Below, piece by piece: positions 2,473 to 34,581 of a stretch of 64,000 bases of DNA. Below the pieces are notes generated by a model. It saw only the letters and a list, made by a program, of their open reading frames with translations. It made no database searches and was not told where the DNA came from. The number at the start of each line of letters is the position of its first letter. Position 1 is the first letter of the stretch. The stretch is taken from the IMG/VR virus record IMGVR_UViG_3300049846_001717, positions 34,056 to 98,055 of that record. One strand, given 5' to 3'. The position numbers and the translations under genes are program-made. The DNA comes from a virus.

Positions 2473-3145
2473 TTATTGTAATAGTTCGAGTTGACCTCGG
2501 AGTACGTCTTTCAACCGGACTTTCTTATCCGATCGATGATCGGTGACGATACCGTCCTGTTCCCGATACGTTCGAATCTTATCGCCTCGCATTCCCGAAC
2601 CTACAAGCTGTTTGCGGTCACCATCGGCTTGCCGTTTCGATTGTTCGGCCATATACGTGGCTACTCGATGTTCCAACAGTTCACGAGCAGTACGACGATT
2701 CTGATGTTGACTCTTCTCTGCGGCTTTCGCTTCGATCTTTGTTGGTTCGTGCCGCATGATGACACATGATTCAGTCTTGTTACGATGTTGACCGCCGGGG
2801 CCGGAATCCTTAGTGGTAAACGTCGTAATGTCTGATTCCTTCAATCGCCATGACGCAGGTTCTTTGATCTCAAAGACGGCTACGGTGACGGTTGATGTGT
2901 GAACCCGACCACGACGTTCGGTGGGCGGAATACGTTGCCATCGATGACCACCTGATTCATTCATCAATAATCGGAGCTTTGAATCGGTGCCTTCGATGAT
3001 CAGGTCAAAGACTACCTCGGTTCTCCGAAATCACGGACGCGCCGAGACGAGAGGCAAACGACAGATAGATGTTGGCTTGGTTGGACACGAGCAGTTTTGC
3101 ATCAGTGCCACCTTCACCAGGTCGGATTTCTACGAGGTATTTCAT
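2473..3145 (-). CDS. class I peptide chain release factor, RF1-like (PxT), lacking domain 1; about 223 aa via programmed +1 frameshift at 3004-3010
   Basis: frame 0 (3145-3008) MKYLVEIRPGEGGTDAKLL...RGSL then TGA; +1 frame DLIIEG...NESGGHRWQRIPPTERRGRVHTS...SGPGGQHRNKTES...EKSQHQN...RGDKIRTY. Confidence 0.9.
3004..3019 (-). promoter_or_regulatory. prfB-type +1 ribosomal frameshift cassette
   Basis: CGAGGT-AGT-CTT-TGA-C: internal SD, 3-nt spacer, slippery CTT, UGA-C. Confidence 0.88.
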
Positions 3146-3167
3146 CGAAATTCTCATTAAAGGAAAG

Positions 3168-3244
3168 TGCTCCTAGTGGGACTCGAACCCACACTTGACG
3201 GCTTCTCGAACCGTTGACTCTGCCTGAGATTGGTCTACAGGAGC
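3168..3244 (-). tRNA. tRNA-Leu(GAG), short variable loop, C at position 33
   Basis: ACGGT-TCGAGAA-GCCGT; 5-nt variable loop; GGTTCGAGTCC. Confidence 0.75.
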
Positions 3245-3288
3245 ATTAATGTCGGTTTTGAGAGAACCGACAAACTCGTATGACTCGC

Positions 3289-5493: not shown

Positions 5494-5570
5494 TCCGCCC
5501 AGTAGGAGTTGAACCTACGTGCAACCAACTAGCCTTTCTACCGTGTATCAGACGGAGGGCATATGGGCGG
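5494..5570 (-). tRNA. D-armless tRNA-Ile(GAT)-like RNA
   Basis: acceptor CCGCCCA/TGGGCGG; CCGT-CTGATAC-ACGG; T-arm GTAGG-TTCAACT-CCTAC; D-arm replaced by TATGCCCT. Confidence 0.75.
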
Positions 5571-5626
5571 TTATCTGAGTTACATGCGGATATACTTCAA
5601 TCTACTACGATCCATCTTGTGTGGCA

Positions 5627-5699
5627 AGCTCCCACCCGGTTCTGACCCGGGCTCTCTGCTTTACCAAAGCAGAATGTCAACCACGATCACTATAGGAGC
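5627..5699 (-). tRNA. tRNA-Thr(GGT), atypical T-loop
   Basis: CTGCT-TTGGTAA-AGCAG; T-loop GTCAGAA. Confidence 0.82.
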
Positions 5700-5718
5700 G
5701 TTCGTGAAACCATTGTAA

Positions 5719-5790
5719 AGCTCCATATGGGAGTTGAACCCATTTATCCCGCTTACGAGGCGGGTACATCACCCTTTATGCTTATGGAGC
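5719..5790 (-). tRNA. tRNA-Thr(CGT)
   Basis: CCCGC-CTCGTAA-GCGGG. Confidence 0.92.
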
Positions 5791-5863
5791 ATGTGGCTGT
5801 GAGATTTTGCACGTTCCCACATTTACTCTCCTCGACTGCTTCTTCGGAGTACCATCGAACCGC

Positions 5864-6000
5864 GGGCGTGTTCTGCCATTGAACTATATGTGTACGAGAA
5901 GCTGGGCACGGACTGGCACTAAGTATTCCATATTATTCCACACCGCGTGGCACCGTCTTCAAACTACTCATACGAGGAATTGAACCTCGATCTCACCCTC
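5864..6000 (-). ncRNA. circularly permuted tRNA-like RNA (YrlA/Y-RNA-like topology)
   Basis: T-arm and 3' acceptor strand precede 5' acceptor strand and D-arm. Confidence 0.6.
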
Positions 6001-6001
6001 A

Positions 6002-6074
6002 CGCTAACGGTCAGATTCGAACTGACGGCATCCTCATTACAAGTGAGGTGCATTGGCCTCTATGCTACGTTAGC
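6002..6074 (-). tRNA. tRNA-Thr(TGT)
   Basis: CCTCA-CTTGTAA-TGAGG. Confidence 0.93.
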
Positions 6075-6077
6075 AAG

Positions 6078-6153
6078 TCGGCCCGACTGGAGTTGAACCA
6101 GTGTGCACCGTCTAACCTTTCAACCGCTTATCAGGCGGAGGGTATACGGGCCG
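6078..6153 (-). tRNA. D-armless tRNA-Ile(GAT)-like RNA, second copy
   Basis: acceptor CGGCCCG/CGGGCCG; CCGC-CTGATAA-GCGG; D-arm replaced by TATACCCT. Confidence 0.75.
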
Positions 6154-6300: not shown

Positions 6301-6374
6301 TGGACACCACGGGAATCGAACCCGTCACATCGTCATTGCGAATGACAATCGCCACCCTTGGTACATTGGCGCCC
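6301..6374 (-). tRNA. tRNA-Ala(CGC)
   Basis: TGTCA-TTCGCAA-TGACG; G3:U70. Confidence 0.88.
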
Positions 6375-6444
6375 GAGCCCGCAACCGGCGATGTCCCGGC
6401 GAGTTGACCTCCCTTCAACTCTTTCATGCGGCGGATTATTTCAA

Positions 6445-6940: not shown

Positions 6941-7021
6941 ATCACCGGGTGGGAATTGAACCCACGTAGGCTTGCGCCACTGATTAACAGTCAGTTGCCT
7001 GAACCATTAGGCTACCGGTGA
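6941..7021 (-). tRNA. tRNA-Asn(GTT) with long variable arm
   Basis: ACTGA-CTGTTAA-TCAGT followed by GGC-GCAA-GCC variable hairpin. Confidence 0.82.
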
Positions 7022-11489: not shown

Positions 11490-11580
11490 TACTCCCGGTG
11501 GGACTCGAACCCACATATTGCGTATCTCAGACGCTGACCGTATCATAAGTACGGGGGCTTAACCATTAACCGACAGGAGC
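11490..11580 (-). tRNA. tRNA-Ile(TAT) with long variable arm
   Basis: CCGTA-CTTATGA-TACGG; variable hairpin GCGT-CTGAGAT-ACGC. Confidence 0.82.
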
Positions 11581-24825: not shown

Positions 24826-25080
24826 TTAGATCACACATTTGAACTGATCGGCTATAATATTTTTCCGTACTGGAAAGGACGCACGATGTATAAGTCGATT
24901 ACCATCCCGGCTCTGCACAGAATCCTCCACAATATAGTTTGGAATCTTATTGGTGAACACGTTCGCCACATAGTTGATCGTGCCGCTACCCAGGTAAAAC
25001 TCCACGTAACACCGGCCATCCGTCACATACAGATCGTACGGTAACACACCGGCGCTACAAGCAATGATGTATTCAGTCAT
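24826..25080 (-). CDS. tandem paralog family member 1
   Basis: Y-I-I...VANV...IP...FPVRKNI..DQF. Confidence 0.8.
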   Translation of the reverse strand: MTEYIIACSAGVLPYDLYVTDGRCYVEFYLGSGTINYVANVFTNKIPNYIVEDSVQSRDGNRLIHRASFPVRKNIIADQFKCVI

Positions 25081-25331
25081 GGTAATATGATTTCAAAGTC
25101 TGCCGCCGTGATACCAGGTCTGACCGGAAAACTCACGACATATCGTCGTAGACCGGCGATCGGGCTAACCTCATATAGTTGCATCTCAAGATCCGGGATT
25201 TCACCAAAGTCCACGTTCGCAACGGACCAGATGGTACCCGTATCGATTTCAAATTCCAAATAGCACCGATTGTTGTAAACTTCTATATCCGATGGCGGAT
25301 TGTCGGTACATGCAATGGGATAGGGTTTCAT
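25077..25331 (-). CDS. tandem paralog family member 2
   Basis: YPI...SVANV...IP...FPVRPGITAADF. Confidence 0.82.
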   Translation of the reverse strand: MKPYPIACTDNPPSDIEVYNNRCYLEFEIDTGTIWSVANVDFGEIPDLEMQLYEVSPIAGLRRYVVSFPVRPGITAADFEIILP

Positions 25332-27785: not shown

Positions 27786-28018
27786 GAGAAATCCTTAAAT
27801 TGAACGCCGGGCCTCACATTGAAGAAGAAAATATAGCCGGAGTGATCGGTCGAGGGCCGCCAGGTGCCGCGTGGGATCAGGTTGGCATCGACATCACAGA
27901 CGGTCAGGATGATCTCATGTGGATCGCCGATATGTTCGATCAGGATGGCGGCGACGCCGTTAAAGACGTCCATTTCAAGGATCCGCTTATTGCAGACGAC
28001 CGGATATTTGGCTACCAT
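27779..28018 (-). CDS. tandem paralog family member 12
   Basis: KYPV...TVCDVDANLIP...FNVRPGVQFKDF. Confidence 0.8.
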   Translation of the reverse strand: MVAKYPVVCNKRILEMDVFNGVAAILIEHIGDPHEIILTVCDVDANLIPRGTWRPSTDHSGYIFFFNVRPGVQFKDFSW

Positions 28019-28266
28019 GTGAAATCATCCGCGCCGACGCCGGATCGGACCGGAAATGCGATGGTGACCGTATTGGTGCCGTAGATATTCCAATTCGGGA
28101 TATCAACGAATGACACGCCACACACGGTCAATTCGATCTTATTCATGAGCCGTGCGGCCAAATGCACCATGATGTGCGTGCGTTCGACGCCGCGACTGAA
28201 TGAGGTCTTGACCGTTTGTGAGACGCCCAGAATGGGGTGATTGGCAACGATCGTGTACTGTTTCAT
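28012..28266 (-). CDS. tandem paralog family member 13
   Basis: QYTI...TVCGVSFVDIP...FPVRSGVGADDF. Confidence 0.8.
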   Translation of the reverse strand: MKQYTIVANHPILGVSQTVKTSFSRGVERTHIMVHLAARLMNKIELTVCGVSFVDIPNWNIYGTNTVTIAFPVRSGVGADDFTW

Positions 28267-29380: not shown

Positions 29381-29645
29381 TCACGATCTCCACTTCAAAG
29401 TCATCGGCCGTGAGCGACCAGCGAACGGCGACGTATTGCCACGGACGGCCCACCCGATCTTCATCACGCCGACCCAACCACGGCGGCGACTCCAATGACA
29501 GAAGTTCGGGAATATCTTCCCACATCACGCCCGCCACCGAAATGATCCGGTAATCTACCCTGTCCGGGTAGATCCACAGTCGGTTCACATTGTCGGAATA
29601 TGCAAAGGACACCGGGCCAGTGGCCACGATCTTGTACTTAGCCAT
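29373..29645 (-). CDS. tandem paralog family member 16
   Basis: YKIVATG...SVAGVMWEDIP...AVRWSLTADDFEVEIV. Confidence 0.82.
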   Translation of the reverse strand: MAKYKIVATGPVSFAYSDNVNRLWIYPDRVDYRIISVAGVMWEDIPELLSLESPPWLGRRDEDRVGRPWQYVAVRWSLTADDFEVEIVNA

Positions 29646-30643: not shown

Positions 30644-30976
30644 CTACTTCGTCGCGTCGATGAGGTCGGCGAGGGCCCGAAGGAACATCGCTTCCTCCTT
30701 CCCATTCGTCAGCCCCATCGAAATCAGGTCCTCGATCGCGAACGGGTCACCTTTGGAGTGGATCTCTTCGAGCGTGACGTGTGAATGGAACTCGATGCCG
30801 CCGTCGTCCGTCTTGCGACAGGTGACGATCGGCTCGGACATCGAGCCGTGGCTCGAGAAGATCTCATCGAGATCGATGTACTTGGCGGCCGGCGGCGCCT
30901 TGGGCACGTAGGTCTTGACGTGCGAGACCTGACGAGGCCGGGCGGGCTTGGCCTTCGGCCGGTTACGGCTGACCAT
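30644..30976 (-). CDS. hypothetical protein
   Basis: TAATG coupling; high GC3. Confidence 0.65.
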   Translation of the reverse strand: MVSRNRPKAKPARPRQVSHVKTYVPKAPPAAKYIDLDEIFSSHGSMSEPIVTCRKTDDGGIEFHSHVTLEEIHSKGDPFAIEDLISMGLTNGKEEAMFLRALADLIDATK

Positions 30977-33960: not shown

Positions 33961-34581
33961 TCAGTCACCTTGCGGCGTCTCCCGGAGCCGGTCGAGCAGG
34001 GCGGCGAGGGCCGCGTTGTGCGCGTCATTGTCGCGCTCGATGAAACACCCCGAGCACTCCCCGTAAGGACACGACGGTTCGTGCTTCACGCCGTCGCCGG
34101 ACTTTCGCATCCCCTCCACGATCCCGGCGATGCGCTCCCGTTCGGCGCGGCGACCGCGCTCGTACTCCACGGCGGCGACGGCGGCGCGGTAGGCGTCGCG
34201 GGCGTGGTCGTACTGCTCGCCTGTTTCCGCCGGACCGTTCGGATGCGACTCGACGTGCAATCCAGCGTACACGTAGTCGAACGCCCGCGACGTGACCGCC
34301 TCCCACGCCTCGCGCTCGGTCGCCGCGTCTGCGCTCGCCGTCAGTGGCTCGCTCCCGCTCCCCTCGACCGAGGCGCGGGGGGCAAGATGCGCGGACGCGG
34401 GGTTGCCGGGGCAGCCGTTGGAGATGCACAGCCCGTTGATGAGTTCGAGCTTGCAGAACTCGCAGTCCTTCCTCTCGTCACTCGGTTCACTCGGCACGGT
34501 CGGCGCTGCCGGGATGTACGTCTGCGAATCCTGATGCACCGGATAGCGCAACGGGTCCGGCTTGTTCGTCTCACTCGGCAC
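33961..34581 (-). CDS. hypothetical protein, shares module with 35669-35986
   Basis: YRAAVAAVEYERGRRAERERI...LAALLDRLRE. Confidence 0.7.
   Translation of the reverse strand: MPSETNKPDPLRYPVHQDSQTYIPAAPTVPSEPSDERKDCEFCKLELINGLCISNGCPGNPASAHLAPRASVEGSGSEPLTASADAATEREAWEAVTSRAFDYVYAGLHVESHPNGPAETGEQYDHARDAYRAAVAAVEYERGRRAERERIAGIVEGMRKSGDGVKHEPSCPYGECSGCFIERDNDAHNAALAALLDRLRETPQGD

Follow-up and report, generated by a model that had tools for sequence, protein, structure and literature searches.

What does a phage encode when one of its genes has the acceptor stem, anticodon arm and T arm of a transfer RNA (tRNA) and no D hairpin where a cloverleaf would have it? Two such genes, here called A and B, lie in a 64,000-nucleotide (nt) stretch of viral DNA (the window), which comprises bases 34056-98055 of the 98,055-base pair (bp) IMG/VR virus record IMGVR_UViG_3300049846_001717 (completeness 45% according to CheckV). 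The first 11.6 kb of the window are part of a long tRNA array on the minus strand. The tRNAs called by ARAGORN number 31 in the window and 47 in the record, where it also calls a transfer-messenger RNA (tmRNA). The original prediction, made from the sequence alone, called A and B D-armless tRNA-Ile(GAU) genes with a shared alternative fold. Sequence comparisons suggest that they are very probably working tRNA-Ile(GAU) genes that belong to a phage-specific tRNA class with a rewired core.

The sequence bears out two minus-strand genes with a 7-bp acceptor stem, a T arm and a GAU anticodon arm, as had been predicted, and position 6153 is the correct end coordinate (Table 1). In both genes the 5' half consists of the acceptor stem, U8 A9, a U followed by (G/A)CC and CU, and the anticodon arm; after this come 20-21 nt of the form (U)WGAAA, GG(C/U) and UAG..GGU..CAC, then the T arm and a discriminator A. 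The anticodon stem is built of four Watson-Crick base pairs and one U.U layer, and its 7-nt loop (CUGAUAC in A, CUGAUAA in B) has U33 and a purine at position 37. The T arm has a 5-bp stem and, with the loop UUCAACU, the usual T-loop consensus. The anticodon arm is not preceded by a D hairpin; the 7 nt that connect A9 to the anticodon stem pair with bases 3' of the anticodon arm. We refer to this pairing as helix X.

The acceptor, anticodon and T stems diverge in sequence between A and B while their pairing is kept, and helix X shows a compensatory change from GCC:GGC in A to ACC:GGU in B. Only CUU separates the discriminator of gene B (6078) from the next gene, tRNA-Thr(UGU), and such a 3-nt gap is the tight spacing usual in tRNA arrays. 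Standard tools handle the two genes poorly: both were missed by ARAGORN, and with the Rfam tRNA model (RF00005) gene A reached 29.6 bits against a threshold of 29, while gene B gave no match at threshold, nor up to E = 10.

Relatives in other phages

We scanned viral contigs with a pattern derived from the two copies and with a looser version in which the six putatively paired bases were left free. The first matched 15 other viral contigs and the second 67 viral contigs of 8.6-459 kb. With a single exception, the 68 parsed instances had complementary free bases, in the combinations CUC:GAG (29), CCC:GGG (17) and ACC:GGU (13), five more Watson-Crick combinations and one G.U variant. Altogether, 83 distinct sequences were parsed to the layout, 72 with Ile or CAU anticodons and 11 with Arg anticodons, and helix X occurs among them in 15 pair combinations. 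Three weak model matches (G014:69183, G037:98187 and position 86379 of phage Mildred21) gave no clean parse as members and were left out of the counts.

Covariation was analysed in an alignment of the 46 distinct Ile(GAU) members. The four-helix structure has 98.6% of its cells paired and compensatory changes at 18 of its 19 pairs, values reached by none of 500 shuffled controls. Helix X is paired in 99.3% of cells, with compensatory changes at all three pairs, while covariation extends to seven of seven pairs in the acceptor stem and to four pairs in the anticodon stem. Pairing of helix X is 100% in a mixed set of 34 members, and RNAalifold independently predicts the identical four helices. 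Other registers of helix X were rejected: slid registers pair only 32-48% of cells, and in the register CCU:AGG the near-invariant C13 would face A in about 16 members that have a U:A middle pair. The pairs C14-G33 and U15-W32 that RNAfold suggests for gene A are neither backed nor contradicted by the family, in which C14 and G33 are invariant and position 32 is A or U.

A covariance model (R1) was built from the 46 distinct members, with genes A and B in the seed alignment. Its scores were 75-102 bits for the members and below 31 bits for all ordinary tRNAs of the record; the E-values of R1 and of a second family model, R2, are rough. The matching G/A and C/T changes that had been taken as a sign of pairing between the two copies thus represent a real helix in exactly the proposed register, and the non-cloverleaf class that had been suspected is found, with covarying helices, on at least 67 other viral contigs.

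Unannotated copies are also present in cultured phages, namely in 38 Streptomyces phage records of the Mildred21 type, in Microbacterium phage Magritte and in the crAss-like Kehishuvirus 'tikkala' of Bacteroides, whose copy has two U.U mismatches in the acceptor stem. These were located by short single-gene queries from other members; a blastn search of cultured phages with the 1.4-kb region gave only a chance-level match of 47 nt. Matches in Klebsiella, Serratia and Escherichia phages were 25-30 nt long, lay inside protein genes (E 0.2-0.6) and were rejected as members. A set of 185,579 bacterial and archaeal species, each represented by one genome, had pattern matches in only 15 contigs, all from metagenome bins and several of them 160-410 kb in size, and no bacterial isolate genome in this set had a match.

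The low Rfam scores and the lack of ARAGORN calls are also what one might see in decaying tRNA pseudogenes that have had their D arm deleted. This explanation is hardly credible, since each helix shows compensatory changes among dozens of phage contigs that are not related, the tertiary bases are near-invariant, and cultured phages of both Actinomycetota and Bacteroidota hosts carry copies. Because of the covariation we exclude decay; the earlier argument from stems that differ and yet stay paired is upheld by the comparison of A with B and by the family as a whole.

The D arm and known tRNA variants

We read the D arm of these genes as re-ordered and not lost, with one D-stem strand and the D-loop relocated 3' of the anticodon arm. 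In canonical numbering the order would be 8-9, 22-25, 26, anticodon arm, linker, 10-13, 14-21, 48 and T arm. On this mapping the label D-armless does not apply, for the D-stem helix, A14, R15, G18G19, position 20 and A21 are all present in a different order, and what had been described as a variable region of about 21 nt is really a linker, a D-stem strand and the D-loop.

Several regularities of the 83 members are consistent with this mapping. From the U after A9 through the last 5' base of the anticodon stem, all 83 have 10 nt, equal to canonical positions 22-31, and the 5' linker from helix X to the anticodon stem is 2 nt in all 83. The length of the 3' linker is variable across the class (4-9 nt), with UWGAAA conserved in the Ile(GAU) members. 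Of the 46 aligned members, 44 have C:G, like G10:C25, as the helix X pair that adjoins the anticodon stem. The 3' strand of helix X is followed by U-A-R-N(1-3)-G-G-N, and an A precedes the last base before the T stem in 82 of 83 members. The purine after UA covaries with that last base (G:C in 37 members, A:U in 28, G:G in 14 and other combinations in 4), which, judged from the sequences, is the 15:48 tertiary pattern. Both A and B carry UAG..GG and a C before the T stem.

The D-stem of a canonical tRNA is stacked on its anticodon stem, with position 9 next to 22, 44 next to 10 and 21 next to 48. The three new junctions (9-to-22, 44-to-10 and 21-to-48) therefore look closable. In the three-dimensional fold that we infer for the class, the chain would pass from U8-A9 into the normal 3' strand of the D-stem (U22 and 23-25), then to position 26 and the anticodon arm. 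A bulged linker would lead on to the other D-stem strand (10-12 and U13), followed by the D-loop (A14, R15, G18G19, position 20 and A21), position 48 and the T stem. The D-stem would thereby close around the anticodon arm as one long hairpin, joined to the T arm by the D-loop, and the usual tertiary contacts (U8-A14, 15-48 and G18G19 with the T loop) could still give rise to the L shape.

Helix X and the relocated D-loop hold all parts of a normal D arm, and some carriers encode an RNA ligase and a polynucleotide kinase (for example Mildred21 gp113 and gp110). The permutation might thus exist at the DNA level only, the transcript being cut and rejoined into an ordinary cloverleaf as with the permuted tRNA genes of algae. 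We consider this very improbable. An internal segment would have to be excised and re-inserted upstream through three junctions, for which we know of no pathway; the junctions are without conserved processing motifs; and the invariant 10-nt 5' strand suits a fold that is functional directly. The circularly permuted genes of Cyanidioschyzon and other algae (PMC3978253) likewise encode tRNA parts in a non-standard order. They differ in that the whole 3' half comes first and the 5' half second, a normal tRNA being regained by processing, whereas in the phage genes only an internal segment has moved and the two acceptor strands stand at the ends in normal order. The mature phage RNA most likely keeps the genomic order.

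Compared with canonical tRNA-Ile(GAU), the phage genes share the 7-bp acceptor stem, the five-layer anticodon stem, the 7-nt loop with U33, GAU and A37, the 5-bp T stem and the usual T-loop, as well as U8, A14, R15:Y48, G18G19, A21, A73, C4-G69, C29-G41, a location in a tRNA array and, if the mapping is right, U20. They differ in having the 10-13 strand and the D-loop after the anticodon arm, with no D hairpin before it, and a bulged linker of 4-9 nt instead of the ordinary 44-47 variable loop.

Mitochondrial tRNAs that lack the D arm include mammalian tRNA-Ser(AGY) and nematode tRNA-Ser. They too have no D hairpin and a short connector after the acceptor stem, and pairing of the connector with the variable region can extend the anticodon helix. 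In the mitochondrial forms the D arm and the D-loop contacts are lost and the core is flexible and reduced (PMC7609411). The phage-borne RNAs, with a normal length of 76-77 nt, instead keep A14, R15:Y48, G18G19, position 20 and a standard T loop, so that neither the D-loop nucleotides nor the bases of the D-loop/T-loop contact are missing. Allo-tRNAs mined from metagenomes are, like the present class, natural tRNAs of non-standard secondary structure that were found in sequence data; they have acceptor/T stems of 8/4 or 9/3 or an altered D-stem length, and the cloverleaf order is kept (PMC5389517; PMC7609411). The review PMC7609411 describes no relocated D-loop and does not mention phage. We found no description of the layout in the reviews and the full-text literature searched, which covers few subscription journals, and the layout may have been described before. 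The cloverleaf order of arms is treated as universal outside organelles, and the rewired class would be a natural and widespread case of another strand order in which helices and tertiary bases are kept.

Probable isoleucine identity and function

The anticodons of the class are GAU and UAU (Ile), CAU, and ACG, UCG, CCU and UCU (Arg); members with anticodons other than GAU came to light when the models were run on the collected loci and on 57 whole records. Directly after GG, each of the 11 Arg-anticodon members has A, and each of the 72 members with an Ile or CAU anticodon has U (uncorrected Fisher p 6e-14, overstated by relatedness). A20 is the main determinant of Arg identity in bacteria, and bacterial Ile identity includes U20, A73, C4-G69, C29-G41 and U12-A23 (PMC9976931, Table 1); if the mapping is right, the A and U after GG match the elements A20 and U20. 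All 72 Ile-type members have A73. Both A and B contain A73, G34-A35-U36 and A37 as well as C4-G69 and C29-G41, neither of which pairs is universal in the family. Under the mapping by analogy U20 would be present in both genes and U12-A23 and A38 in B only, A having C-G in the place of the former.

The record itself contains a rewired Arg(CCU) gene with a 4-bp helix around a 5-bp anticodon stem (Table 1). Two rewired Arg genes lie in Mildred21. The Arg(UCG) gene at 91367-91442 (L119:8668-8743) is labelled tRNA-Phe(gaa) in GenBank; its loop reads CUUCGAA, and the label looks like a mis-reading of this loop. The Arg(ACG) gene at 94857-94933 (L119:12158-12234) has no annotation. A second rewired Arg subtype, 80 nt long, occurs at G027:30937-31016, 30713-30792 and 90947-91026, G028:300536-300615 and G045:73113-73192 (L138-L141). 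Its order is UA, GC, helix X, anticodon arm, UAR..GGA, GC, UGAAAAY and T arm; the two GC dinucleotides could pair with each other, and being invariant they show no covariation.

As had been predicted for the window, ARAGORN calls no canonical Ile(GAU) gene there, and none in the entire record. Four of five complete carrier genomes (G023, G036, G009 and G006, with 24-38 tRNAs each) have no canonical Ile(GAU) gene either, and the fifth has two. At 69 loci with 945 ARAGORN tRNAs, only 5 canonical Ile(GAU) genes were found, versus 34-44 each for Asn, Asp, Phe, Tyr and His. The rewired genes fill this empty Ile(GAU) slot. Gene finders miss or mislabel the class, and phage tRNA sets seem short of Ile, and sometimes of Arg.

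A different role for such RNAs is suggested by their non-cloverleaf layout, by the failure of standard finders to see them, by the canonical Ile(GAU) gene that some phages have alongside, and by the strong conservation of the anticodon loop, a common nuclease target. They could be tRNA look-alikes that act outside translation, as a decoy or sponge for a host defence enzyme that cuts or modifies tRNAs, or as a primer or regulator. We regard this as unlikely. A decoy for an anticodon nuclease needs neither A73 nor an A or U at position 20 that tracks the anticodon; most carriers would be left without any Ile(GAU) tRNA while encoding nearly all others; and the conserved U8, A14, 15:48, G18G19 and T-loop bases favour a full L-shaped tRNA. 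The decoy role raised in the original prediction is hence disfavoured, with position 20 following the anticodon by synthetase rules, A73 in all Ile-type members and the Ile(GAU) slot filled.

For working tRNAs, we infer that A and B are transcribed, processed, provided with CCA, charged and used by the ribosome. A 534-amino-acid open frame of the record contains a CCA-adding-type nucleotidyltransferase domain (record 2838-3260, outside the window), which fits the absence of an encoded CCA in both genes. No class Ia synthetase (PF00133) is encoded in five carrier records; a phage-encoded isoleucyl-tRNA synthetase as orthogonal partner was rejected on this ground, and charging would have to be by a host enzyme. 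The host isoleucyl-tRNA synthetase would charge the products of A and B, and the codons AUC and AUU would be read. Charging and use of these RNAs would mean that a different backbone topology is tolerated by synthetases, EF-Tu, RNase P, the CCA-adding enzyme and the ribosome, a point that bears on tRNA recognition and tRNA engineering. The cultured Streptomyces, Microbacterium and crAss-like carriers make the class accessible to ordinary experiments.

Several points weigh against reading A and B as working tRNAs with a rewired core. The numbering of positions is a mapping by analogy, not a solved structure. Members were partly ascertained by patterns that fix bases, although those with UAU, CAU and Arg anticodons came from model searches instead; the relatives share ancestry, so that raw counts overstate the number of independent events; and the U.U layers and the GAAA bulge are invariant and hence outside the reach of covariation. 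Folding of the single sequences is not unusually stable (z = -1.35 and -1.22 for A and B). G16, an identity element of Escherichia coli tRNA-Ile, is absent from both genes, and gene A has C38. Rewired and canonical Ile(GAU) genes coexist in Mildred21 (NC_042008.1), which has a canonical tRNA-Ile(gat), in G044 and at 5 of the 69 loci, so the rewired gene is not always the sole Ile(GAU) supply.

Whether the rewired core brings an advantage is a separate matter. The evasion of nucleases raised in the original prediction is speculative. A tentative and rather doubtful possibility is that the rewired core is adaptive, in that it would hide the RNAs from a tRNA-targeting defence or toxin of the host which recognises tRNA-Ile and tRNA-Arg by their D-arm and variable-loop face. 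To the host synthetases, EF-Tu and the ribosome the rewired tRNA would remain acceptable, and AUH, AGR and CGN codons would still be translated after an attack on the host tRNA pool. The coexistence of rewired and canonical genes is compatible with such an escape and equally with plain redundancy. If the adaptive idea were true, the class would represent phage counter-defence by a new route, at the level of RNA structure, and would prove by a natural example that a change in strand topology is compatible with the tRNA fold.

Feature coordinates and other elements of the record

Table 1. Genes A and B, their parts and two further tRNA genes of the record. Positions refer to the window unless the record is named; canonical position numbers are assigned by analogy.
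Feature	Position	Strand	Basis or remark
Gene A, putative rewired tRNA-Ile(GAU), 77 nt, without encoded CCA	5494..5570	minus	sequence; R1 95.6 bits, R2 90.9 bits
Gene A acceptor stem, 5' strand	5564..5570	minus	pairs with 5495-5501, 7/7 pairs
Gene A discriminator A73	5494	minus	sequence
Gene A U8 A9	5563-5562	minus	sequence
Gene A U, equivalent of position 22	5561	minus	mapping by analogy
Gene A helix X, 5' strand GCC, read as D-stem 23-25	5558..5560	minus	pairs with 5532-5534
Gene A anticodon arm	5541..5555	minus	anticodon GAU 5547-5549, between U33 and A37
Gene A 3' linker UAGAAA	5535..5540	minus	first U faces U27; remainder bulged between anticodon stem and helix X
Gene A helix X, 3' strand GGC, read as positions 10-12	5532..5534	minus	family covariation
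Gene A relocated D-loop, U13-A14-G15-UU-G18G19-U20-UGC-A21-C48	5519..5531	minus	mapping by analogy
Gene A T arm, 5 bp, loop UUCAACU	5502..5518	minus	sequence and family covariation
Gene B, putative rewired tRNA-Ile(GAU), 76 nt	6078..6153	minus	sequence; R1 92.8 bits, R2 87.1 bits
Gene B helix X, 5' strand ACC	6141..6143	minus	pairs with 6115-6117 (GGU); compensatory relative to gene A
Gene B anticodon GAU	6130..6132	minus	sequence
Gene B helix X, 3' strand GGU	6115..6117	minus	yields a U12-A23 pair under mapping by analogy
Gene B relocated D-loop, UAG-AC-GG-U-GCA-C	6103..6114	minus	mapping by analogy
Putative rewired Arg(CCU), same phage, discriminator U, A after GG	record 28137-28209 (L072:8238-8310), outside window	minus	helix CGGU:ACCG, 4 bp
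tRNA(CAU)-like gene, 108 nt	1-93 and 14 nt beyond the window start; record 34041-34148	minus	Rfam tRNA 33.8 bits, folding z -3.0

The tRNA with anticodon CAT at 1-55, which had been suspected of a similar reduction, is cut by the window edge, and its full gene of 108 nt has a D arm and an additional hairpin. Its acceptor stem, D arm and T arm are normal, an extra 8-bp hairpin stands between the D and anticodon arms, and position 37 is a pyrimidine. Neither R1 nor R2 matches this gene, which is a different oddity from the rewired class.

Other unusual elements were seen in the minus-strand array. Directly downstream of tRNA-Thr(UGU), an element resembling a T arm and an acceptor 3' strand (5965-5993, minus strand) has no obvious complete tRNA around it. 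Three array tRNAs are over-long: one of 96 nt that ARAGORN could not assign (6301-6396), an Asn(GUU) of 81 nt (6941-7021) and an Ile(UAU) of 91 nt with a long extra arm (11490-11580).

Outside the window, the tmRNA gene with the tag ANTALPLAA lies at record 24842-25194, and a tRNA with the anticodon CUA (amber suppressor type, labelled 'Pyl' by ARAGORN) at record 29531-29602. The window also encodes a release-factor-like protein (Pfam RF-1 and PCRF) at 2473-2967, and the CUA tRNA together with this protein hints at stop-codon recoding or its control. The G+C content steps up near position 28000, from about 0.46-0.52 to 0.57-0.64, and stays high through the end of the window, which makes the record compositionally two-part. 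The best tblastn matches of the GroEL-like gene of the phage are cellular GroEL-like genes in mixed records.

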